A DNA stretch of 64,000 nt from a plasmid, in the sequence record NZ_CP084508.1; one strand, 5' to 3'. The notes under the pieces were generated by a model. The model was not told where the DNA came from. It did no database searches and saw only the letters and a program-made list of their open reading frames with translations. The translations under genes were made by a program, and so were the position numbers. Of the stretch, positions 5,912-43,707 are shown one piece after another (the first letter of the stretch is position 1; each line of letters starts with the position of its first letter).

Positions 5912-6059
5912 TCAGGTATATTAACATTTTACCCTGCCTGCAGATAGCGGGCGGCCATATTATCAAACCCAAAAATCACAACGACCCGGACGAGCGAGCC
6001 ATCCTTTGGAGGGGGTAGCTCAGACCGCTACGACCTCTATCCGACTTAGAGTACGATTT

Positions 6060-6141
6060 TCTCCATTTTCCAAGCGGCCCCCAATACTCGATCATTGTTC
6101 GAACGATACCCTTCTATCTCACCATGTTGTGAATCCTATTT
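6060..6141 (-). pseudogene. Short stub of the colicin rRNase-domain 3' end (third, most degraded repeat unit)
   Basis: gaacgatacccttctatctcaccatg... aligns to 6735-6773 and to the colicin 3' end at 7352-7390. Homology stops below ~6088. Confidence 0.45.
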
Positions 6142-6324
6142 CTACTGGCACTTGATACCGGCCATATCAGAAGAGGATGATGGGGCTACCGTTCCTCCTT
6201 GAATATCATGAATATAGTTTGCCTGACAGGCTGAAAGAAGAAAACCTAACGTTGCAAATAATATAAAAAAATAAATTTCTTTTTTCTCATAAATTTCCTT
6301 ATTGATATAGCTACCAGCATTCAT
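6142..6324 (-). CDS. Bacteriocin release (lysis) lipoprotein, copy 2
   Basis: 60 aa with a signal peptide and lipobox LLSAC, then QANYIHDIQGGTVAPSSSS, the conserved core of colicin E-type lysis proteins. It is a paralog of 6774..6956. Confidence 0.75.
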   Translation of the reverse strand: MNAGSYINKEIYEKKEIYFFILFATLGFLLSACQANYIHDIQGGTVAPSSSSDMAGIKCQ

Positions 6325-6371
6325 CCTTGATTACTGGTAGCTTGCTCATCAATTATTAATTGCTAATGGGA

Positions 6372-6629
6372 TCACCAATTTCCATCCCGATAATCAAAAG
6401 CTATATAATAATTATCCAAATCAGGCTTTATTTGATTTTTAAAAAATGGCTGTAGTAAAGCAACCCATTCTTTCTTCAAATCAAACTCACCATTATTAAT
6501 ATTATCCTTTAAAGGCATCCCCAGACTTTCAATGACAGCCCCATCATCACCAAAATCTTTAGAATACTCCTCACCTTTAAAATCGCTTGTCTTCTTATCA
6601 AACCATGTCAAACGTAATTTAAGACCCAT
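6372..6629 (-). CDS. rRNase-colicin immunity protein (ImmE3 family), second (orphan) copy
   Basis: 85 aa [29 protein letters not shown]...FDYRDGNW, the same length and conserved blocks as the colicin E3 immunity protein. It diverges from copy 1 in the central specificity region. Confidence 0.8.
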
Positions 6630-10139: not shown

Positions 10140-11072
10140 TTAGATTTTAAAGGCACCGGTACGCTCAAGCAGCAACTTGTAGAACGCCTCCGCGTCCTGC
10201 TGCAGCAGTCCAGGGTACTCACGTTTAAGGATTTCCTGTAGCTGCAGCAACTGGATTGGCGTCATCGCGCCGGTGATCGACCACTGCGTAAACTGCTGAT
10301 AGTAGCTGTGCGTTTTCCGCTTGGCCAGCTGCCGGATGTTCTGGTTGGTCTCATCCAATTGTTGCTCCAGCGCCGAGCGTTGCGCCAAGGTTTGCTCTAT
10401 CGTGGCCACAGCCTGAGCCTTATCCCGTGCCAAGTCCGGGCTGACCACCCAGCGCTTGATTTGGCGCAGCCGGTTACGCAATGAGTGACGGGATTTCAGG
10501 TCAATACCGATACGCTCAATGTGCACCAGGTGTTTTTCATAGCGTTGGCGCAGTGTCTCCGTCAGACCGTTCTTCATCGCCCAACGCTTGAATTTGCCCA
10601 GCCAGTCACGTATTTCATCGACCTGGATACCGCGCGAAGTAAAGAACGTCTCGGATAGCCAGATACGCAGCGGCTTGTTCTGGCCACTGTCGCTGTCCTG
10701 GGTATGCAGCACAATGACATAGCCCAGCTGCTCCATCACCGAGAGGGCATGCAAGGCAACGTCGTAAGCTTTGCGACCGCTCTCGTAAACGTGCAGTACC
10801 CCCATCGCCGAGGCGATTTGCTCAAACGGTACCATCACTTCGAAGGGATAGTCGCTATCCGGGTTGTAATCCGTGTGTGCAGCCAATGCCTGGGAGAGAA
10901 CCGTTAACGCTTCACGGCTCTCTGAGCGTGTGCTGATCCGCATCGGTTTGGGCACAAAATTCGGATCATGACGATAGGCATAGGGAATATATCCCCGCTG
11001 GCGCAGGGCAATCAGATCGCCATTGCGATTCCAATCGTGACGGCTAATCCGTGCCACGACTTTTGACGCCAT
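10140..11072 (-). CDS. repA: Plasmid replication initiator RepA (IncFII RepA-family fold); start codon uncertain, ORF open to 11216
   Basis: It lies directly downstream of finO, as the RepFII replicon does in F-like plasmids. The central winged-helix-like segment (FEQIASAMGVLHVYESGRKAYDVALHALSVMEQLGYV) and the basic C-terminal region resemble IncFII/pCD1-type RepA. The first 48 codons of the ORF probably overlap leader/antisense-RNA control sequences. Confidence 0.5.
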   Translation of the reverse strand: MASKVVARISRHDWNRNGDLIALRQRGYIPYAYRHDPNFVPKPMRISTRSESREALTVLSQALAAHTDYNPDSDYPFEVMVPFEQIASAMGVLHVYESGRKAYDVALHALSVMEQLGYVIVLHTQDSDSGQNKPLRIWLSETFFTSRGIQVDEIRDWLGKFKRWAMKNGLTETLRQRYEKHLVHIERIGIDLKSRHSLRNRLRQIKRWVVSPDLARDKAQAVATIEQTLAQRSALEQQLDETNQNIRQLAKRKTHSYYQQFTQWSITGAMTPIQLLQLQEILKREYPGLLQQDAEAFYKLLLERTGAFKI

Positions 11073-11623
11073 ACCACGCGAAACGGCACAACACAGTTTC
11101 GGCTGATAGCGGCGATGGATTTTAGGCTGTCCCTTACGGGCCGCATTGGCCGCACCCCGCCGATTTGGCGAGTGGGACAGGTTATCGGCAATCGACGGAG
11201 AAAGGTTGCTATACACCCCGCCCTGCGCTTATGTTGCGCGGACAGAGTACGGAGCACAGAAAGGATTGCAGTTTTCCGAGCATGGCTTTATACTCCCTGC
11301 ATAGAGCAACAGCTTCTATGCAGCATTGTAGTGAGCCCCGTTAGTCTTCTTCTAGTCGCCAAACCTGGGAAGATTATCGGGGTTTTCGCTTTTCTGGCGC
11401 GGAGTAACGTCCCCCTCACCAGCTCCCTGCCACCTTGCGGCGTGGCCCGCCATGAATTCGTCTGTCTGTATCCTGCCCTCGCCCCTCATCATCAGTGATG
11501 ATGAGGGGGCAGAAACAGCGCTTCTCGCAAGAATACTACAGACAACCCAAAAAATTAACCTGTTTTCGGTCTGTTTTGGCGTACAGACGGCAACAGGATC
11601 AGAATGATGCATAAAAGGCGGCA

Positions 11624-12157
11624 TCACCTGGCAGTCGTTCGAGCCTGAAGATAATGGTGTACATGCTGGACGAGTACCTCGGGATCATCTCCTCGCCATA
11701 ACGGTATCTGTGCCTGACGAAAAATTTCGTTGAGCACGATATCGCGCCGTATACGCTTTGCTTGTTGATGCGTTGCATCATCCAGCTCAATCGCCGCAAT
11801 AATGTGACCTGTTTTTCGCTCAATAACCACGACATCACAATGCCACTGTGAAATAAGCCGGAATAAACACCACCATTGACGGCTACCTTTTTTCCAGGTT
11901 GACGAAACCTCAACAATATCGGCGACACGAACCTGGAGACAAAAATACCAGTGATGTGCGCCAGTCGCCGGCGATAACGCGGAAAAGAAGGCATATTCAC
12001 GCGCGGTCATCAATTGTGGCTTGGCCGTAAAGGAACAGTAATCTATCCGATTCTTTCGGCTTGATACCCGCCGCCAGCAGAGCGCGTAATAAGGGATGAG
12101 CCTGCTTTCTGCCTTGCACCGATAGCCAGATGATAAATAATAAAATGAATAGGGCAA
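11624..12157 (-). CDS. DUF2726-family (NERD/PD-(D/E)XK-like) protein, apparently frameshifted away from its N-terminal TM segment
   Basis: KPQLMTAREYAFFSAL...VRVADIVEV...HCDVVVIERKTGHIIAAIELDDATHQQ..RIRRDIVLNEIFRQAQIPLWR matches the DUF2726 core. A typical N-terminal TM helix (IIVFFIFLGLALFILLFIIWLSV) is encoded in a different frame (ORF 11997..12281). Confidence 0.4.
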   Translation of the reverse strand: MPYSFYYLSSGYRCKAESRLIPYYALCWRRVSSRKNRIDYCSFTAKPQLMTAREYAFFSALSPATGAHHWYFCLQVRVADIVEVSSTWKKGSRQWWCLFRLISQWHCDVVVIERKTGHIIAAIELDDATHQQAKRIRRDIVLNEIFRQAQIPLWRGDDPEVLVQHVHHYLQARTTAR

Positions 12158-12399: not shown

Positions 12400-13020
12400 C
12401 TAAATGCTGTTAGCAGGTGTTGATTTTCGCCGTTGATAGGATTCAATCCGGGCACACGCGTACTGTTGTTCCTCCTCCGTGATCGTGGCAACCGGCTGGC
12501 CATCAATGCCATAGCGGGAAGCTCCGACAACCATACTGCGCAAATAGGTCGTCGAGCGCGTAATACGTTTCAGGCAACGGCGCAGCTGTTTGCGTGACAA
12601 GGGCAGCGCGCGCGTAGCAATGTCGGCCAGCAACGCATCCCGTAACCCGACTTGCAGCAAACGCGGCTTGTCCCCCTCAAACAGCCCAGGCCAGTGGGGT
12701 TTCATCAGGGCAACGGCCTCCGCCAATGGCATCAATACCACCCCTTTCGGCGGCTTCGGTGGGCATTTTTTATCCTGCTTGGCCGGGGCTGCGGGTGGCG
12801 GGGTGAGAGTCGGCGCTTTTGCTGGCGCCCGTTTTGCCTCTTTCGCCTGCTTTTGTGCCGCCAGTTTCTGCTTCTTCACCTTCCAGGGAGGTGGCGTGTT
12901 CACCACCACCACTTTCTTACGATGGACAACCACCGGGGCGGTATCCGATGTCACTGCAGGTGTTTCTTCAACGGGTCGTTTACGCTTCAGACTCAATGTT
13001 GGCCGCTTCTCTGTATTCAT
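12400..13020 (-). CDS. finO: Fertility inhibition protein FinO (ProQ/FinO RNA chaperone)
   Basis: 206 aa with a basic N-terminus (PPPWKVKKQKLAAQKQAKEAKRA) and C-terminal MKPHWPGLFEGDKPRLLQVGLRDALLADIATRALPLSRKQLRRCLKRITRSTTYLRSMVVGASRYGIDG, colinear with F/R100 FinO. Confidence 0.85.
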   Translation of the reverse strand: MNTEKRPTLSLKRKRPVEETPAVTSDTAPVVVHRKKVVVVNTPPPWKVKKQKLAAQKQAKEAKRAPAKAPTLTPPPAAPAKQDKKCPPKPPKGVVLMPLAEAVALMKPHWPGLFEGDKPRLLQVGLRDALLADIATRALPLSRKQLRRCLKRITRSTTYLRSMVVGASRYGIDGQPVATITEEEQQYACARIESYQRRKSTPANSI

Positions 13021-19896: not shown

Positions 19897-22107
19897 TCAA
19901 AAACCATCCCCCAACTCTTCATCACTCACGACATGGCTGTGGTTAACGTTGACTTCCTCTTGGCGCTGTTTATCGCGTAATGTATGAGAGCCGGCTTGCC
20001 ACGCAGCATAGGCGTCGGGATCAACAACCTCACCCTGCACATCAATACCGGGGGGTAACACGTCCTCTTGATCTTGTTGTTCTGGCTGAGCGGATACCTG
20101 CAATTCCTGTAAATCACGCTCAACCCCACCGCCCATCGCGGCTACGGCATCCGTTCCCCCTTGCACAGCGGCAACCACAGCGGCTGCCGCTGTAGTCGCT
20201 GCCATCTTACGGGATACCGTATTGACGGGTTGGCTATCAACAGGCGTGACCGCAGGCTGAGAGGGCTGTACCCCAGCGGCCGCCTGGCTATCGCTTTCAA
20301 ATAAGCCATCGATACTGCGACCCTCTTCTTCTCGTGCCGCCAATACCGCACTCAGGCGCGCCTCGGCATCGGTATCGATCACCCGGGGAATGAACTCCTG
20401 AGCAATACGGGGGCGCGGCTGGTACTTCAACGCCAATTTAATAGCAGGATACGGCCCAGGCAGGGTGACAAAGCAGGTCAAGTCCGGCAGCGTCTGAATA
20501 TCGCTATAACTGACCAGTGTGACGCGCTCCATATCCTTACCAACGGATACCCCATCACGTACCGGATCAGCACCGTAGGAGTATTGCTCACTGGCTTTTT
20601 GGATCTCTTTCTCACCGATTTCCCCCGCCGCAAACTCGGCAATCTGTTTGCTGGGTGAGCGGAAAAAGGCCCGGGTGTTAAGCACATCAAACAGCGTGGC
20701 CGCCCCTTTGACGCCATAGATATCTTCCAGCTGGGCATAGGATTGGAATCCCAGGACATAGCAGCCCCCAAATTTGCGCGCTTCCGGCAGAATTTCGACC
20801 AAATCAGGCAACTTATACAGCGTCGGCAGCTCATCGGCAAAAATCCACACCCGGCGCTGGCGGTTCTCGCCCATCGCCAACAACCCCCGGATTGCGATGG
20901 ATAACCACATGGAGATCACCGGTTTCAGGGAGGCGTGGGTGTCTGCGTTAGAGGAAATGAACAACCAGCCATTCTGGCCATCCTCCCTGACACTGCGCAT
21001 CCAGTCGCGGATCGTGAAGGACTCGCCATTGCACTCGATACCCTGCAGGTAACGAATAGCTTTCACATAGTTGGTCAGTACGGCACGAATGGAGATAGCG
21101 GTCTTTTCAATTTTTTCTTCTACCAGGTTCGCCGCCGGCGAGGACTGCAAGTAGGCACGGAGCTTGTCGATCTTAATGGACAGTAAGGTATCAACCAGCT
21201 TGGCGTAACTACGATCATCGTCCTTACGCATCCGGTAAGCGGCCTCAGCAAAGATGGTTCGCCCCGACCCTTGCCAGAAGGGATCTTCACTGCTGCCCAT
21301 TGGGATCAACGTGTTGGCCACGTTATCGAAATCAGGCTGGGTTAAACATTCGCGCCACAAGTCCCAATTAGCGCAACGCACATCAAGGGGATTGAGAATT
21401 TTATCTTTGGCGGGGTCGTAGTAGCTTTTGACAAATTCACAGGAGCGGTCGTAGACGATAACCATATCGCCCCGCTGGCGGGCATGGTTCATCAGGCGGC
21501 GAATGAACTCCGATTTACCGGAGCCGACCGTACCATGTAAGCAAAAATTCTGGATCTCACTGTCCTTAATCAACGGCAATTTTTCGATTCGGATATCGGA
21601 TTGGCGACCATCTCGCTTTAGCATCGCCGCAACCTCTTTCGGATTATCGGTTAACTGGCGCCCGCCGGTGACTTCATCCTCACTCTGCTTCTTCCCCTGG
21701 TGGCCTAAAATCCAGGAGGCAACAAAGAAGGTAATAAGACAGGTAATACCGCCAATAATGGCCGCCAGAACAAAGCTGCTCCATAACTGCTCGCCACACC
21801 AGATGGTGTATTTATCCTGTAAGATTTGCTCAGCGTTATAGGCGAGCTTCCGGCCATAATATTCAATATGGTAAACCGGCTGCGACCGAAGCAAAGAGCG
21901 CATCGGGGCCAGAGTCTGGCACCACCAATACACGCAACCATTAACAAAGGTCTGCCAGGATAAGCGGGCCATCAACGTTAACGCAGCGATAACCCAAAAA
22001 AGCAGAAAAAGGCAATAAAAAATAATATTGGCAATTTGGCCAAACATGCGAAAACGCATAGAGGCGATCTGACCGCCCTGGGTCATATCTTTGGCATTAA
22101 AACTCAT
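19897..22107 (-). CDS. traD: Type IV coupling protein TraD
   Basis: 736 aa, nearly colinear with F TraD ([18 protein letters not shown]...; Walker [10 protein letters not shown]; acidic C-terminus ending EELGDGF). Confidence 0.95.
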
Positions 22108-22193
22108 AATATTATCTCTTAATCAGCAAGAGCGAAAAGGTCAAGCGTAGAGGAAGTATGCCGCCAGAGAATTACTGACGGCACAGATGCAAA

Positions 22194-22712
22194 TCAGGCG
22201 TTTTTCGAATCTTTAAAAGCACTAATAACGTTGGAGAAAGCGGCTAATTGATAACGACTAAAATCAATCATCATTACTGATATAAACAAAATTGTAAACA
22301 CTATCAAAAACACAAACCAAGAAAAATTAAAAACACCACAAACAATAGCCATAAAAAACAGCAAAATCAATGCTGAAACAGCATAATATTTAACCTTGGA
22401 ACCAACAAAATTATATATCAGTGACTTTTTCCTGAACTCATATGGAACCGACAAAAACAACCCTCGCGCATTCGATGAGCTCATCAATATCATGAAGCCA
22501 ATAATTCCTCCACCACCGACATACATAAGCAATACCATTTGTGATGCATAATCTGATATTGCATATGAAACAATCCCACACAATATCAACCAAGCTACAA
22601 ACAGCAACCCAGGCCACATACATTCCCACATTGTTGGTATTTCCATTTTTCCATTGGAAAGAATAACCTTTAACTCCTCTGTTTCATTTTTTATTTTTTC
22701 ATGTGTAATCAT
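22194..22712 (-). CDS. traS: Entry-exclusion inner-membrane protein at the TraS position
   Basis: 172-aa very hydrophobic, very AT-rich ORF between traG and traD, the locus of the hypervariable traS in F-like plasmids. Assignment is by position only. Confidence 0.4.
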   Translation of the reverse strand: MITHEKIKNETEELKVILSNGKMEIPTMWECMWPGLLFVAWLILCGIVSYAISDYASQMVLLMYVGGGGIIGFMILMSSSNARGLFLSVPYEFRKKSLIYNFVGSKVKYYAVSALILLFFMAIVCGVFNFSWFVFLIVFTILFISVMMIDFSRYQLAAFSNVISAFKDSKNA

Positions 22713-25564
22713 TTTTTATGCCCTCGAACATACTCATCTTGGAGCTTATTTGCCTTTTCTAATAATTCCTCTTTTGTATTCGCTCCGGGAATTAAATTCA
22801 TTCTATCTTTTGCTGATTGATAACCAACATGGTGTTTATCTTGTTGCTGCTTATACTCCTGCCCTAAGTGACTATATTCCCCTTTGACTTCAGATGACTG
22901 ATTATTGATCTCATTTTTAGCAGAATGCTGCCGGTTCTGGTTTTCATCGATCATGTGATCGACTTTACCTTGTACATTATGAGGAAGATCTGCCTGCTGA
23001 GTCTGACGTTCAATAGTCGCACTATTGGCTTGATAGTCCGCCATCACATCGGCCTGATTACCGCCCGCTGATACCACGCCCATCCCTTGCCCGGCCAGCT
23101 GACGACTATGCGCATACTCGCCATCAACACGCGGTGTGACTTGTTCACGCACAAACTCACGCGCCAGTTCTTCCCGCTGGGCGGCAACTTCAGGCGACGC
23201 AGTGTTGGTCAGGATAGCCTCCGCATTTTCTGGTGCACGTTGCTGCACAAAGCTCACAAACTGTTGTGTCAGGTTTTCACTCATCTGCCCACTCATGCTT
23301 TCAGTCCGAGAAGCCATTTCCGCATACTCATGGCTGCGAGTATTGCTGGCCGTATACTGGTCGTAACTGTTCTTGGCTGAACTCAGTGAAGCAGACAACT
23401 GATCCACGCGTGAGGCTGCATTATTCTCGGTATGGCTCCCTGACTGGCTAGTCCGGTGACTACTCAGATAATCCAGGCTCTCCTTAAAGTCCTGAGCTGC
23501 TTGAGCACTGCTACTTTGCCGGTTTTCATCTGTTTGGCGATGCCCATCTGTGATGCTGTCATTCGAACCATTACTACCGGACCATCCCAAACCTCCTTTT
23601 GCTCCGCCATACGCACTAAGGCCAGTTCCCCACTTGCCTAATTTTGTTGCTAGCATATCTCCAGAGTCCCACTTCCCTCCCAGATAAGCCTCTGCATTGG
23701 CTGTCCACCGGGAAGACTTATCCATCAACGTGTTAAATGCCTGCTCATTACTCATATTATGAGCTTTGGCATAGCTCTGCACCGCATTCCACATCTGGCC
23801 ACGTGCCATCGACTCCTGGGTATTTTGGGAATTATCTGCGCCACTGACATAACTGCTGCTACTTCCCATATTGGAGCCAAACTGCTTCAAGCTATTCCAG
23901 GCGCTGCTTACACTATTGGTATAACCTTGTAATGCACTTTCAGCCTGCACCGCTGACTCGCGCGCCATTTGCTGTTGCACACTGGCAATCTGCCGCGTCA
24001 CATTAATATCGACGGGCAGTTTCGACATGGCGCTACTGCTGTCATAAACCATATTGCCATCCCGCGTTTGTGTCGCCGTTCCCCCTGCGCCGGTTTGATG
24101 GGTCATTTGTCCAAACGACGTAGAGCTATTGGTATTCCAGCTATAACCGTTGACGTTTTCCGTCTGCATATTGCCAAACGCATAATTACCATCAACCGCA
24201 CTGGATGAGGCGGAGGTTGTTGAACTGAGCGAGGCTGACCCCAAGGATGAGCTGATACTTGAAAACACCTGTCCCAAACCCATGACCATTTTCCAGGAGA
24301 GGAACGGGATCATCATCGAGATATAGCCTGCAGTCGTGGCGATATCAGAATATTTCACCTGCACCTGTGACAGCTCAGATAATACAACCGGCACACCATT
24401 CTGTTTTGCATAATAGGTCATTGCACTATTGAGTATGGCATATAATAACGGCCATGTCTGTAGCCACATAAAAGTAAATAGATAACCTTTGAGCACCGTC
24501 ATGGTTATCATATTAAACATCCCTGCAATCATCATTACCGGGAATAATCCAATCAGTATTCCCATGATAATAACCTGCATCATGGGCAGTGATCGTAATG
24601 CCACCTGGCCGACAGACGCATGCGCCAAACGTTGTTTTTCTAGTGAGGAAGTCGTAGCTATATTCATCAGGCTGGCGGTATCGCCATTACGTGCAGCATA
24701 GCTGACAATCCCACCCCGTAATGCATTCAGGGTGACATTCTGGCGCAATATCTGTGCCGCATTTTTTGATGATCCGTAAAAATAATTGTAGCTATCGCCG
24801 ATCAATTGACTAAATAGTAAATCAGGATTAGGGCGCCCCCCAAAAAGCTGTTGAACATAATAGCGCCAAGTTGTCCCACCGGTTTTGCTGTCGAGCGCTA
24901 ACATCCCCTTTAGATAAACCGCAGCTTCGGCACAAGTACGGAAATTATTATCTTTGTCAAAAATACCTCGCAATGGACTTGGTTTAGAAAAAATAAGCGT
25001 ATACGGATCTGGGGAACTCATTAAATCTTCGAAAGTGTATTTGTGATTAAGGAAAATATCGCCCATCACACAGTTTTGCACATAGTCCGTAAACAGATTG
25101 GTCATTTCAGGATTACGGGATAAGAAATCCGTGCTACGCGCCACCAGATTCGCCCCGAACAACATCCCCGTCTTACTGTAGGTCACACTGTCGGGCTGGG
25201 CAAAGACCATCTCATACCCTCGTACCAAGGCATGGCCGATACGTGTTGTCAGGGAAGCCGGTAACGCTAATCCCACCGGGACATTATCGACCTGATAAAC
25301 ACGCATCATATCACTGGTATCGATGATCTGAATGGGCGAACGTATCCCCACCATCATCCAGATCACCGTAAGAGATACGGCCCAACCCAACATATCCATC
25401 ACGTTGTGCCGACGAACCCAGCTGATTGCCACCGCCAGGACCGAAAACAAAATCCCCATTCGCTGCAGCGTATTCCAGGTATCTGTACCCATAAAGGCCG
25501 CAATGGCGTTAAAGGTGCCGCGCAACCATTCACCACCGGCAATGGTATAAATCTCGAGCATCAC
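22709..25564 (-). CDS. traG: Mating-pair stabilisation / entry-exclusion protein TraG (VirB6-like N-terminus)
   Basis: 951 aa, colinear with F TraG (MLEIYTIAGGEWLRGTFNAIAAFMGT...; polytopic N-terminal half, Ser/Gln-rich periplasmic C-terminal half). Confidence 0.9.
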   Translation of the reverse strand: MMLEIYTIAGGEWLRGTFNAIAAFMGTDTWNTLQRMGILFSVLAVAISWVRRHNVMDMLGWAVSLTVIWMMVGIRSPIQIIDTSDMMRVYQVDNVPVGLALPASLTTRIGHALVRGYEMVFAQPDSVTYSKTGMLFGANLVARSTDFLSRNPEMTNLFTDYVQNCVMGDIFLNHKYTFEDLMSSPDPYTLIFSKPSPLRGIFDKDNNFRTCAEAAVYLKGMLALDSKTGGTTWRYYVQQLFGGRPNPDLLFSQLIGDSYNYFYGSSKNAAQILRQNVTLNALRGGIVSYAARNGDTASLMNIATTSSLEKQRLAHASVGQVALRSLPMMQVIIMGILIGLFPVMMIAGMFNMITMTVLKGYLFTFMWLQTWPLLYAILNSAMTYYAKQNGVPVVLSELSQVQVKYSDIATTAGYISMMIPFLSWKMVMGLGQVFSSISSSLGSASLSSTTSASSSAVDGNYAFGNMQTENVNGYSWNTNSSTSFGQMTHQTGAGGTATQTRDGNMVYDSSSAMSKLPVDINVTRQIASVQQQMARESAVQAESALQGYTNSVSSAWNSLKQFGSNMGSSSSYVSGADNSQNTQESMARGQMWNAVQSYAKAHNMSNEQAFNTLMDKSSRWTANAEAYLGGKWDSGDMLATKLGKWGTGLSAYGGAKGGLGWSGSNGSNDSITDGHRQTDENRQSSSAQAAQDFKESLDYLSSHRTSQSGSHTENNAASRVDQLSASLSSAKNSYDQYTASNTRSHEYAEMASRTESMSGQMSENLTQQFVSFVQQRAPENAEAILTNTASPEVAAQREELAREFVREQVTPRVDGEYAHSRQLAGQGMGVVSAGGNQADVMADYQANSATIERQTQQADLPHNVQGKVDHMIDENQNRQHSAKNEINNQSSEVKGEYSHLGQEYKQQQDKHHVGYQSAKDRMNLIPGANTKEELLEKANKLQDEYVRGHKK

Positions 25565-40325: not shown

Positions 40326-40538
40326 CTAACGTTCTTCTTCCGGACTCTCCTCCACACTATCGGCATTATAAAAATCAGGAAACCGTTCAAGGTGATCAGT
40401 CAACCGCAGAACGGCCTCCATCGACTTAGGACGATTACTGCGTAGACACGCAGAGATCAATGACTCATTGGCTATATCGCTAAGGCGGATCGATACAGCT
40501 GGACCAGTCCCTATAGGACTGCGTTTTACTCTGGTCAT
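40326..40538 (-). CDS. traY: TraY (ribbon-helix-helix oriT-binding relaxosome accessory protein)
   Basis: 70 aa; SIRLSDIANESLISACLRSNRPKSMEAVLRLTDHLERFPDF matches the F TraY RHH repeat. Confidence 0.8.
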   Translation of the reverse strand: MTRVKRSPIGTGPAVSIRLSDIANESLISACLRSNRPKSMEAVLRLTDHLERFPDFYNADSVEESPEEER

Positions 40539-40630
40539 CCCTCCCCCATAACTATGATTAATTCATAATCATCGTCCCACCATTCTTATAAAATGTAAAA
40601 TCAAATGTTTGTTAAAATAAACATCCCTCA

Positions 40631-40653
40631 TAGGGTAAATTAATATTACCCTA
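40631..40653. promoter_or_regulatory. Dyad symmetry element TAGGGTAA-N7-TTACCCTA in the traY promoter region; candidate operator for the upstream LuxR-type regulator
   Basis: A perfect 8-bp inverted repeat with an AT-rich 7-bp spacer, ~95 bp upstream of the traY start. Position is analogous to the TraJ-binding site at P_Y in F. Confidence 0.35.
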
Positions 40654-40669
40654 CAAGGGAGGGTCTTTG

Positions 40670-41372
40670 TTACACTATGTTAACAACAGCACCACCAATA
40701 AACTCGCGCATTAGCAATATAATAAATTGCAAATTCTTATCATCAAGCAAATAGTATTTTAAAAGTGATGGATTACAGGCATAACCAACTTTGCAAACAA
40801 CACTCTTAACTCTCTTTTTGGTGGCATCTTCATTTATTTTTAATATCGCAGAAATTTCTTTCGCTCCACAACCAATAACAACAAAAGGGAATACAACTTT
40901 CTCTTTCTCAGTTAATTTAAAGAACACATCTTGAAAATTTATTGGCTTTTCTTTCGATAGCCCAATTAAATCAAAACGGCTAAGATCTTTTATAGGCTTA
41001 AACTTATTAAGTTGCCACAGATAATAAATAGAATCGAAACAAGTCAGCATTTCAATTCGAACTTGCCAAACAGCATCCCCTATAAGAATATTACGACACT
41101 GAACAAAATCATCTTTAACAAATGACACTTCAAACTCCAATTTGGTCAAATAAAAAGAAAGACCATTACTAAAGCAAAAGATATCATTTAAATGGATATC
41201 GGCATAAGACTTAGCATCACAGTTAAATTCTTTTGCAAAAGACAGGTTATAATAAACAAAGTCAGAATTTGCATTCCGAATACAAATAGGATATGGGGAT
41301 TGCTTAAACTGAGCACAATAAGAATCAAATTGACATGGAGGGTGTTTGTCTTTAGGATTGCGCATACACATA
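40670..41372 (-). CDS. LuxR/GerE-family HTH transcriptional regulator occupying the traJ position; ORF open to 41503 with a GTG
   Basis: The C-terminus LTEKEKVVFPFVVIGCGAKEISAILKINEDATKKRVKSVVCKVG is a canonical LuxR-type HTH. The sequence is very AT-rich compared with the flanking tra genes. A good RBS (agagg) precedes the ATG at 41370-41372; the longer form needs a GTG with a poor RBS. Confidence 0.6.
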
Positions 41373-41559
41373 GTGCCTCTAGCAAGGTTGCTATGGATAG
41401 CCGGTATAGCAGGGCGACATCCCTCTATATCGGCGCTTCTCAAATTTTTCAGAACAAAAGCTGTTCTAGATTCAATAATAAACCAATGATTAATTATTGT
41501 CACCTTATAAAGGTAGATAATTATTGCTTTGTTTTAGAATAAATAGATCATTATTCTAA

Positions 41560-41592
41560 TTAAAGATGGAGATGTATATCCCCATCTTTAAT
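41560..41592. terminator. Hairpin between traT and the regulator gene (terminator of the traM-traT unit, or part of a FinP-like antisense RNA)
   Basis: taaagatgg-agatgtatatcc-ccatcttta stem-loop 20 bp after the traT stop, followed by an AT-rich stretch. Confidence 0.35.
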
Positions 41593-41611
41593 TCAACATT
41601 AAATGGATATA

Positions 41612-42352
41612 TCAGAATATTCCTGCAATAGACTTAGCCAACTGAGCCTCTAAAACAGGACGTGCCTCATCAAATTTCAAATTAACTTTATTAGCACTTG
41701 AGACAATACGAGTTTGATATTTATATTGATCACCAAACGATATACTTGTCTGAACTTTGGCTCCTGACGTCCCCTGTCTTAAAGCTGCAACATTATCAGT
41801 ACGAACTTTATCTTTTGTGCGGGTCGCAACCTGAACATCGGTCACCATAGTGTAATTGACATCTTCAACCATAGCGTCTGCAGCCATCCCAATTAACCCG
41901 GCAGCTAAACCCACACCTAAAGTAGCACCGGCGGAGTTTGAATTATATGCGGTGATCCCTGCACCTAATGCCGCACCAGTAACAGCACCCTCATAGCCCT
42001 GATTCAGATACCCTTGCGCATCACGCAGATTCATTTTATCAGCTTTCAGAACGTTAGCTTGAATCCAGTAATGTGCTGTGTTGGCAGACGATGTAACTCG
42101 ATATCCTTTGGCCTCCATATCTCTTACAATCAAAGATTGCAATCCACTTAGATCTTTATCAGAGGTATTCTTCACCTGGATGAATACGGTTTTATCCCCC
42201 ATAGCCGCAGGATCTAACCAGATGGTCTGACTCATCTGTGTCTTCACTTCGAGATTACGTTTCTTAATGGCTGTTGACATCGCACCACAGCCAGACAGGA
42301 AAAACACAGAAAGGACAACTGCAACAGCTAAGGATTGAGTTTTTTTATACAT
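41612..42352 (-). CDS. traT: TraT surface-exclusion / complement-resistance outer-membrane lipoprotein
   Basis: Lipobox [28 protein letters not shown]...[12 protein letters not shown]...[38 protein letters not shown]...[15 protein letters not shown] is near-identical to F TraT along its length. Confidence 0.9.
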
Positions 42353-42408: not shown

Positions 42409-42795
42409 TCACTCATCATCATGCTCACTTGGAAAGAATTTTTCTATAATCTGGCGCACATCTTCAAGAATATCAGACTTCATATTACTATAGACAAACT
42501 TCTCCTTCCCTTGCACGTAAGGGCTTAATGACGCCATCCCCATCACTTTACATATCCCGAACTGTGTTTTAAGAACATTCTCCAACAGGATTTTATTAAA
42601 CTCCATTTGGTTAAACGCAGACTCTTTTCGTTCCATTTGGGCTTCATATACGCGCAACCCCAACTCTAACAGCATAGTAGATATGCTGGAAAAGCTAACA
42701 TCACGCTCTTTCGCCCCCTCTAATCGCCTTGCTTCTACAATCGCATTGATTTTATTAGTAACTTCATCACTTACATACGCCTGAATTTTTGCCAT
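42409..42795 (-). CDS. traM: TraM relaxosome accessory protein
   Basis: MAKIQAYVSDEVTNKINAIVEARRLEGAKERDVSFSS...LLELGLRVYEAQMERKESAFNQMEFNK matches F TraM (127 aa) closely. Confidence 0.9.
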   Translation of the reverse strand: MAKIQAYVSDEVTNKINAIVEARRLEGAKERDVSFSSISTMLLELGLRVYEAQMERKESAFNQMEFNKILLENVLKTQFGICKVMGMASLSPYVQGKEKFVYSNMKSDILEDVRQIIEKFFPSEHDDE

Positions 42796-43233: not shown

Positions 43234-43707
43234 ATGAAGAAAACCGTCTTATTGGTATTCCTAGCACTCATATCCCCCCCCTCTTTAGCCAATGACTGCT
43301 TTGATCTCGCTGGACGTGACTACCGCATAGATCCTGACTTGTTACGCGCTATCGCCTGGAAAGAATCGAGGTTCAACCCCAGGGCGATTGGTCGTAGCCC
43401 TGATAAAAGTATTGATATTGGGCTTATGCAAATTAACTCTCAACATGCTGATACATTCCGGCCTTTAGGCATCAGCATGCAGCAACTGCATAATGACCCC
43501 TGCCTCAACATCTACACCGGCGCGTATGTCCTCGCTAAAGCCTTTAAAAAGTGGGGGGTGAACTGGAATGCTGTAGGTGCCTATAACGCTGGATTTAAAC
43601 AAACGCGTAAACAGGCCGAAAAACGATACCACTATGCTAAAGATATACATACTTATTACCTGGCCATTAAAAACAGCAAAAACCTCTTGGCCAAAAGCGA
43701 CAGATGA
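43234..43707 (+). CDS. Lytic transglycosylase (F orf169 / gene X / R1 P19 family)
   Basis: Signal peptide, catalytic AWKESRFNPRAIG...IGLMQIN SLT motif, and the YNAG motif. First gene of the leading region next to oriT. Confidence 0.85.
   Translation: MKKTVLLVFLALISPPSLANDCFDLAGRDYRIDPDLLRAIAWKESRFNPRAIGRSPDKSIDIGLMQINSQHADTFRPLGISMQQLHNDPCLNIYTGAYVLAKAFKKWGVNWNAVGAYNAGFKQTRKQAEKRYHYAKDIHTYYLAIKNSKNLLAKSDR

Follow-up and report, generated by a model that had tools for sequence, protein, structure and literature searches.

TraJ activates the tra operon in F-like plasmids. It has been described as LuxR-like (Fernandez-Lopez et al. 2016, PMC5102898) and consists of a PAS domain at the N-terminus and a helix-turn-helix (HTH) domain at the C-terminus (PMC5102898, PMC7555446). 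The region comprising traJ and P_Y, the promoter of traY, is silenced by H-NS (PMC7303359). In plasmid R1, ArcA binds its site (abs) at -76 to -60, and the TraJ-binding site (jbs) is the dyad CGCCAATTTTGGCG, which lies 8 nt past the ArcA site and abuts the -35 region (PMC7303359). Footprinting and specificity-switch mutagenesis have established this dyad (-51 to -38) as the TraJ site and the sole determinant of specificity (Bischof et al. 2020, PMC7303359). Against this background, we analyzed the start of the F-type transfer region in a 64,000-nt stretch of plasmid NZ_CP084508.1 (hereafter the window), where the gene preceding traY and a dyad between the two genes had been singled out in a preliminary description. 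Our analysis indicates that the gene is almost certainly a rare and highly divergent allele of traJ, and not a foreign replacement. To the explanation as a whole, in which a divergent traJ is followed by a cognate dyad operator that would double as a hairpin, we assign a probability of about 0.6.

The comparison with R1 and pSLT reveals a shared design comprising the slot upstream of traY, a PAS N-terminus joined to a C-terminal HTH, an AT-rich gene and its control by FinP/FinO, together with an ArcA-type repeat on the traJ stop codon that is followed by 8 nt, a dyad and a T-rich -35 region, the dyad forming the tip of a terminator-like hairpin. However, the window protein is 24% identical to R1/pSLT TraJ and carries a different recognition helix, its dyad is longer and different (8-N7-8 in a 37-nt hairpin, as opposed to 6-N2-6), and traT, which R1 and pSLT do not have between traM and traJ, is located there in the window. 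As a consequence of the longer dyad and hairpin, the ArcA-like repeat lies approximately 21-23 bp farther from the promoter than in R1/pSLT. F TraJ (PDB 4KQD; dyad ATAGAC-N5-GTCTAT), for which the F-type traJ locus of CP123595 (100% identical) served as reference, agrees with the window in architecture, genetic context, a sub-threshold GerE match, the presence of FinP and leader, and GC content (33.8% vs 32.1%), but it is 21% identical, and its dyad differs in sequence and spacing and forms a weak 6-bp hairpin that overlaps the -35 element directly.

The closest backbone is that of Edwardsiella F-like plasmids (e.g., CP090963 and CP116678), in which traY-traA-traL is 98% identical at the DNA level and traT, traM and FinP are about 85% identical. 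These plasmids share the traM-traT-traJ-traY order, encode the closest TraJ proteins in PLSDB and carry a hairpin with a T-run at the same position, but their TraJ protein and dyad (CCGGAA-N6/7-TTCCGG) differ from those of the window. Outside conjugation, the regulators VqmA (6UGL, 7DWM) and EL222 (3P7N) show the same two-domain fold (Foldseek E-values between 1.6e-7 and 2e-6, alignments of about 200-211 columns), but identity is 13-16%, nothing indicates that ligand or chromophore residues are shared, and neither protein is tied to conjugation genes or FinP. Judged from the predicted structure, this resemblance is one of architecture and not of family membership.

Identity and control of the traJ allele

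Between traT and traY, the minus strand contains a long open reading frame (ORF) of 277 aa with a GTG start (40670-41503), within which the true traJ start is predicted to be the ATG at 41371, giving a coding sequence of 233 aa (40670-41371). A GAGG lies 4 nt upstream of this ATG, the Rfam model of the traJ 5' untranslated region puts its AUG at 41371-41369, the alignments to NCBIfam TraJ models start at about residue 43 of the long ORF, and homologues are 229-235 aa long. The additional 132 nt of the long ORF contain the leader of traJ together with a promoter-like GTGACA-17-TATTAT, the GTG start at 41503 being the first three bases of the GTGACA hexamer. The gene is located directly upstream of traY, on the same strand, and downstream of traM/oriT, as is typical of traJ; the sole deviation from the TraJ gene order is the placement of traT between traM and traJ.

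The assignment to TraJ was examined by profile, sequence and structure comparison. The NCBIfam TraJ model NF010274 matched with an E-value of 3.8e-14 (52.7 bits, model positions 19-199 of 228), which was the best score among the five named NCBIfam TraJ alleles (NF010272-NF010276); none of their cut-offs (252-445 bits; 349 for NF010274) was reached. Other distant TraJ representatives likewise fall under these cut-offs, and in an NCBIfam scan of 10 of them (P0003-P0012), 8 matched TraJ models, while P0006 and P0012 matched none. These scores place the protein within the wider TraJ family and outside its five named alleles.

The N-terminal PAS domain (41000-41308, minus strand) was recognized both by sequence and by predicted fold. 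In a phmmer search, residues 23-125 aligned with 4EW7, the crystal structure of the pSLT TraJ PAS domain (E-value 9.1e-8), and 4EW7 also ranked first in the PDB when the AlphaFold model (pLDDT 79) was compared by Foldseek (E-value 6e-8), with F TraJ (4KQD) matched as well at a TM score of 0.77-0.80 normalised to the target. For the C-terminal HTH domain (40748-40936, minus strand), the Pfam GerE model (PF00196) gave an E-value of 0.035 and 14.2 bits, short of its gathering score of 23.5; F TraJ is also sub-threshold yet scores higher (E-value 0.0023, 18.0 bits). Additional weak matches were obtained to the response-regulator DNA-binding domain 6JQS and to the NCBIfam NarL/NarP models. In the AlphaFold model, helices at residues 147-209 (pLDDT 80-94) form the HTH, and the model aligned over about 205 Foldseek columns with VqmA and EL222, regulators that combine a PAS/LOV domain with a LuxR-type HTH. 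The preliminary description had called the LuxR-type HTH unambiguous; the domain itself stands in the predicted fold, whereas its sequence is not unambiguous, and the LuxR/GerE likeness appears to exist at the level of the fold only. Furthermore, since a PAS domain with a LuxR-like HTH is the classical make-up of TraJ, such an HTH does not set the protein apart from TraJ. The same description had recommended a search of the N-terminal part for a ligand-binding, PAS or autoinducer domain, and what was found is the TraJ-type PAS domain, with no match to Autoind_bind or Response_reg in a Pfam scan of the protein.

The assignment is further strengthened by the control elements surrounding the start codon. 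An antisense RNA gene, finP (41365-41440, plus strand), was identified with Rfam RF00107, whose gathering score of 45 was exceeded (46.4 bits) both on the sub-region and on the whole window, and it spans the ribosome-binding site and start codon of traJ. A promoter-like TTGACA-17-TAGGAT (41330-41358, plus strand; 10/12 in the consensus scan), which may serve finP, ends 7 nt before the FinP 5' end. On the opposite strand, the presumptive FinP target is the traJ 5' untranslated leader (41372-41467, minus strand), where the Rfam model RF00243 (traJ_5) matched over its full length at 41366-41467, although under its gathering score (30.6 bits, E-value 0.044). The candidate traJ promoter P_J is the GTGACA-17-TATTAT element at 41475-41503 (minus strand; likewise 10/12), whose -10 hexamer ends 8 nt ahead of the start of the traJ_5 match. 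The RNA chaperone partner of FinP is encoded on the plasmid by an intact finO (12400-13020, minus strand; Pfam ProQ/FinO 6.4e-21, FinO_N 5e-8). Leader, antisense RNA and chaperone were thus all found, and the FinP/FinO circuit that defines traJ control is intact and contiguous with the gene. A leader/antisense pair fused to the start codon is not expected of a gene that has displaced traJ.

As the preliminary description had noted, the gene is AT-rich, with a GC content of 32.1% compared with 48% for traY, 52% for traA, 55-56% for traK/traB and a window mean of 50.8%. It had taken this as a sign of independent acquisition, an interpretation that does not agree with the other traJ genes, since low GC is a trait of the traJ family: besides F, it is seen in pSLT (34.9%) and in the Edwardsiella alleles (29.5-34.5%). 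The AT-richness of traJ is consistent with the silencing of this region by H-NS (PMC7303359).

The dyad, the hairpin and the traJ module

Upstream of traY, the perfect dyad TAGGGTAA-N7-TTACCCTA that had been proposed as a lux-box-like operator of P_Y was found at 40631-40653, and its 8-mer occurs in the window in these two copies only. On the traJ-sense strand, the dyad is part of a 37-nt hairpin (40624-40660, minus strand) with a stem of 15 pairs, six of them G-C and two G.U, and a 7-nt loop. The hairpin starts 9 nt past the traJ stop codon, fills 37 of the 46 non-coding nt between that stop and position 40623, and is followed by TGTTTATTTT; its RNA has a minimum free energy of -24.7 kcal/mol (z -5.55). 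With a G+C stem-loop and the U-rich tail UGUUUAUUUU past a stop codon, the element has the sequence features of a Rho-independent terminator, as was also indicated by a terminator scan. In addition, a second small stem, ACCCT-N7-AGGGT (40648-40664, minus strand), overlaps the left arm of the hairpin and would be mutually exclusive with it.

The arrangement of elements around the dyad was compared with that of known TraJ sites. A candidate ArcA box, the direct repeat TGTTAacatagTGTAAc (TGTTA-N6-TGTAA; 40669-40685, minus strand), extends across the traJ stop codon, and it shares both its 11-bp spacing and this overlap with the repeats of F (CGTTAataaggTGTTA) and pSLT (TGTTAagtgaaTGTTA). From there, the window order is ArcA-like repeat, 8 nt, hairpin with dyad, TGTTTATTTT and P_Y core, while that of pSLT is TGTTAagtgaaTGTTA, 8 nt, CGCCATTTTTGGCG and TGTTTTTTTTT. 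A TGn extended -10-like motif follows the 3' edge of the dyad at a distance of 20 nt in the window, 19 nt in F and 22 nt in pSLT. When folded, the pSLT/R1 jbs forms the tip of a hairpin with 11 bp and a trailing U9; since this known site is itself terminator-like, the terminator-like appearance of the window dyad is no argument against an operator function.

Downstream of the hairpin lies a conserved P_Y core (40571-40623, minus strand), which is 98% identical in the PLSDB records L001 and L002 and 100% identical in the relatives L006 and L007, and whose promoter elements were assigned by reference to F and pSLT. A consensus scan of the minus strand between the dyad and traY found no promoter, and two overlapping non-canonical arrangements could possibly fit by analogy, namely an extended -10-like TGaTTTTAC at 40603-40595 and a TTTACA-N17-(TGg)GACGAT at 40599-40571 resembling F and L008. 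In plasmids with F-like TraJ alleles (L008, positions 537-660; L009; L003), the dyad is fused straight to TTTACA, while in the window and in L001/L002 the hairpin and TTTACA are separated by about 25 additional bases (TGTTTATTTTAACAAACATTTGAT, 40599-40623 in the window), so that two overlapping promoter arrangements are possible in the window. A different inverted repeat, TGTTT-N8-AAACA (40623-40606), was considered as a TraJ site and rejected, as it is shared with plasmids that have unrelated recognition helices and is not kept in L001/L002.

The comparison of alleles, which covers 8 loci from PLSDB, Logan and ENA (L003, L008 and L009 also being PLSDB records), reveals that traJ and the dyad change together. 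In blastn alignments with L001/L002, identity is 98% from traL to 40623, one base beyond the hairpin, is then lost, and resumes at about 85% from 41321-41346. The TraJ proteins of L001/L002 are 33-34% identical to that of the window in a global alignment and have a different recognition helix, and at the same spot as the window hairpin they carry CCGGAA-N6/7-TTCCGG followed by T7. Relative to L003, L008 and L009, homology ends at 40599, where an F-like dyad GAC-N5-GTCTAT is fused to TTTACA. Across the alleles, the recognition-helix region falls into four classes that coincide with four classes of dyad; F and L008 TraJ, for example, are 26% identical overall but 52% identical in the HTH, and GAC-N5-GTCTAT is present in both. 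Because the homology breaks exactly at the edge of the dyad, traJ and dyad constitute one exchangeable allelic module, and because the P_Y core is common to plasmids with different recognition helices, an allele-specific operator can only lie upstream of 40623. By this comparison, the traJ-dyad block is a specificity module that has been swapped relative to the nearest plasmids, and in this respect the preliminary idea of acquisition holds for an allelic module, though not for a gene of a foreign family.

The dyad and hairpin are kept in two independent relatives, L006 and L007, the TraJ of the latter being 83-84% identical to that of the window. The loop or spacer and the inner half-sites are invariant in both, whereas the 8 nt just upstream of the hairpin differ at 3-4 positions. 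The operator role proposed earlier thus remains plausible, as the dyad sits where the TraJ site of R1, pSLT and F sits, and by analogy with these systems the dyad is probably the TraJ operator (jbs) of this allele. With comparable confidence, the stem-loop and its tail suggest that the hairpin terminates or stabilises the traJ mRNA. The two roles of the 37-nt element are compatible and do not exclude each other.

For the binding of TraJ and ArcA, for termination and for the exact start of P_Y transcription, we infer the following course of events from the computed family membership, folds, FinP/FinO presence, hairpin, module boundaries and positional equivalence to the known TraJ site. FinP, helped by the plasmid FinO, would hold down TraJ translation by pairing with the leader of the traJ mRNA, its ribosome-binding site and its start codon. 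TraJ, in which a PAS domain predicted to dimerise precedes a LuxR-type HTH, would most likely occupy the allele-specific dyad in dimeric form, a short distance past the traJ stop codon, and, together with host ArcA on the adjacent TGTTA-N6-TGTAA repeat, would relieve H-NS silencing and activate P_Y for the expression of traY to traI. In the traJ-sense RNA, the hairpin would probably end or stabilise the traJ transcript and insulate P_Y from read-through.

Competing readings of the dyad and of the gene

Several observations weigh against this explanation and were considered together. The half-sites are 15 bp apart from centre to centre, or about 1.5 helical turns, compared with 8 bp in R1 and 11 bp in F, which is unusual for a LuxR-type dimer. 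If the TTTACA-N17-GACGAT arrangement were used, the centre of the dyad would lie near -78 instead of about -54. For the identity of the gene, the NCBIfam TraJ scores lie far under the curated cut-offs, which are allele-specific. The operator role of this allele is, moreover, argued by comparison with other plasmids, and several features of the element point to selection at the RNA level, which could by itself account for the dyad. These are the two G.U pairs, the difference between the strands (15 stem pairs on the minus strand vs 8 on the plus strand), the U-run and the pairing in L007. Both L007 stem substitutions keep the RNA pairing (A-U to G.U and U.G to U-A), while one of them spoils the perfect DNA 8-mer. 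Lastly, at the same place L001/L002 hold a textbook bidirectional terminator, in which the loop lengths are 1 nt apart.

These points lead to the strongest rival, in which the gene is still a divergent traJ but the dyad is a terminator or 3' stabiliser hairpin only, with TraJ binding elsewhere, for example within the 3'-terminal part of the traJ coding sequence, or only weakly and assisted by ArcA. The full 15-pair stem with its two G.U pairs, followed by UGUUUAUUUU, exists solely on the traJ-sense strand, the classic CCGGAA-loop-TTCCGG+T7 terminator of L001/L002 tolerates a variable loop, the half-site spacing is atypical of LuxR-type dimers, and R1 TraJ binds DNA in vitro with low specificity (PMC7303359). 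However, in R1/pSLT the dyad at exactly this position is the experimentally shown TraJ site and is terminator-like as well, the loop and inner half-sites are invariant in L006/L007 while the upstream 8 nt vary, no other allele-specific non-coding sequence is found upstream of P_Y, and the dyad classes follow the HTH classes. This rival is doubtful, if worth keeping in mind, and the combination of a divergent traJ with a cognate dyad operator in the hairpin is preferred.

A further-reaching version of the preferred explanation is speculative and rather improbable. In this version, the 37-nt element would be a bifunctional switch, serving as RNA terminator and DNA operator, in which TraJ occupancy or read-through from P_J couples traJ transcription to P_Y; the ArcA site, two helical turns farther upstream than in R1, would make for a differently wired P_Y, and the PAS domain could sense a signal that F and R1 TraJ do not.

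The proposal that traJ has been replaced by an unrelated, independently acquired LuxR/GerE regulator with a lux-box-like operator and another signal, as put forward in the preliminary description, is very improbable and is refuted by profile and structure. It can draw on the weak GerE and NarL/NarP matches, on the low GC, on the lack of DNA homology between this block and the traJ of the nearest plasmids, and on the absence of the allele from PLSDB and the GTDB representatives. Against these stand the full-length TraJ profile matches (E-value 3.8e-14), the match to the TraJ PAS domain 4EW7 by sequence and by fold, a GerE signal that is equal or stronger in F TraJ, an autoinducer-binding domain that was not found, an intact FinP/leader/FinO circuit contiguous with the gene, and a low GC common to all traJ alleles examined; the sensitive profile comparison named in that description as a possible refutation identifies the protein as a divergent member of the TraJ family. 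It is hardly credible that the dyad arose by chance in AT-rich intergenic DNA and serves no function. Although 3.2% of shuffles of the 131-nt intergenic region contain an 8-bp inverted repeat without mismatches (spacer up to 12) and the window contains about 1.4 such repeats per kb, a 15-pair stem was reached in 4 of 5000 shuffles (<0.1%; z -5.55), the element is conserved in L006/L007 while the adjacent spacer diverges, and the same position holds a different hairpin in other alleles and the jbs in F, R1 and pSLT.

The rarity of the allele was assessed by searching progressively larger collections. Among 72,556 PLSDB plasmids, tblastn matched the traJ slot of 2360 F-like plasmids, in which the matched genes are annotated traJ or "PAS domain-containing protein"; all matches were under 60% identity (best 36.2%), and the allele itself is absent from PLSDB by this search. 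HMMER, run exhaustively against 1.84 billion representatives, returned only 12 proteins, among them the 10 scanned with the NCBIfam models (P0003-P0012), a word-indexed protein search returned 2 relatives, and only 2 close relatives were found among 5.8 billion proteins, one from ENA and one from a Logan assembly. No relative of the window TraJ was found in a single-protein scan of the GTDB representative genomes, and the P_Y core (TTGATTTTACATTTTATAAGAATG) did not occur in genome or metagenome contigs when these were scanned for exact matches. In the closest relative, L006 (Logan ERR6046187 contig, 6001-6453), traJ is 96% identical over the aligned part, and the dyad and P_Y are identical to those of the window. 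Its traJ was called as a 150-aa product that ends before the HTH, and this short form is probably a transfer-defective derivative or the result of an assembly frameshift.

Surrounding genes and relevance to F-like plasmids

The start of the F-type transfer region occupies 36.9-43.7 kb of the window on the minus strand, in the order traM, traT, traJ-slot gene, traY, traA, traL, traE, traK and traB, with traG, traD, traI, traX and finO farther along the window. The nearest records are plasmids of Edwardsiella tarda, E. piscicida and E. anguillarum. In gene order, a lytic transglycosylase (SLT) gene (43234-43707, plus strand) precedes traM (42409-42795, minus strand; Pfam Tra_M 1.9e-54), and traY, the first gene of the tra operon, is located at 40326-40538 (minus strand; Pfam TraY 2.5e-14).

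Between traM and traJ lies traT, which encodes a surface exclusion lipoprotein (41612-42352, minus strand; Pfam TraT 1.6e-78, NCBIfam TraT 4.8e-129) and is present in a single copy within the window. The traM-traT-traJ order is likewise annotated in Edwardsiella plasmids, while in the F plasmid traT is located between traS and traD. In the window, the traG-traD interval (compared stretch 19897-25564) contains one 172-aa ORF only (22194-22712), without a significant Pfam match (best E-value 0.66). In its position between traM and traJ, traT would be expressed independently of P_Y, and the TraT of E. tarda is reportedly an anti-complement factor. About 20 nt past the traT stop codon, an inverted repeat AAAGATGGaGA-N-cCCCATCTTT (41558-41593) is kept in L002, L006, L009 and L010. 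It is likely to terminate traT transcripts and so to set traT apart from the traJ promoter.

Elsewhere in the window, a CopA-like antisense RNA (11301-11391, plus strand; Rfam 74.2 bits) adjoins a 358-aa ORF (10140-11216, minus strand), a pairing indicative of an IncFII-type replicon, and a DUF2726 ORF (11624-12157) lies between this replicon and finO. With regard to annotation, the traJ homologues of Edwardsiella plasmids are labelled "hypothetical protein", many of those in E. coli and Klebsiella are labelled only "PAS domain-containing protein", and several of these plasmids are typed as "non-mobilizable" though their MPF_F set is complete. Nothing specific on a traJ terminator or on the traJ of Edwardsiella was found in literature searches.

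Overall, the comparisons identify a new and rare specificity allele of TraJ, whose regulatory role and circuit are well known, together with the presumptive cognate operator of this allele. The value of this finding is modest, in that a previously unnamed TraJ allele and a presumptive operator are added and no new kind of regulation is implied. Nevertheless, the locus provides a clean case of the exchange of a traJ-dyad module between a conserved FinP/leader and P_Y core in Edwardsiella-type IncFII plasmids. Such cases help to predict cross-activation among F-like plasmids and may aid the annotation of genes that are now labelled "hypothetical protein".

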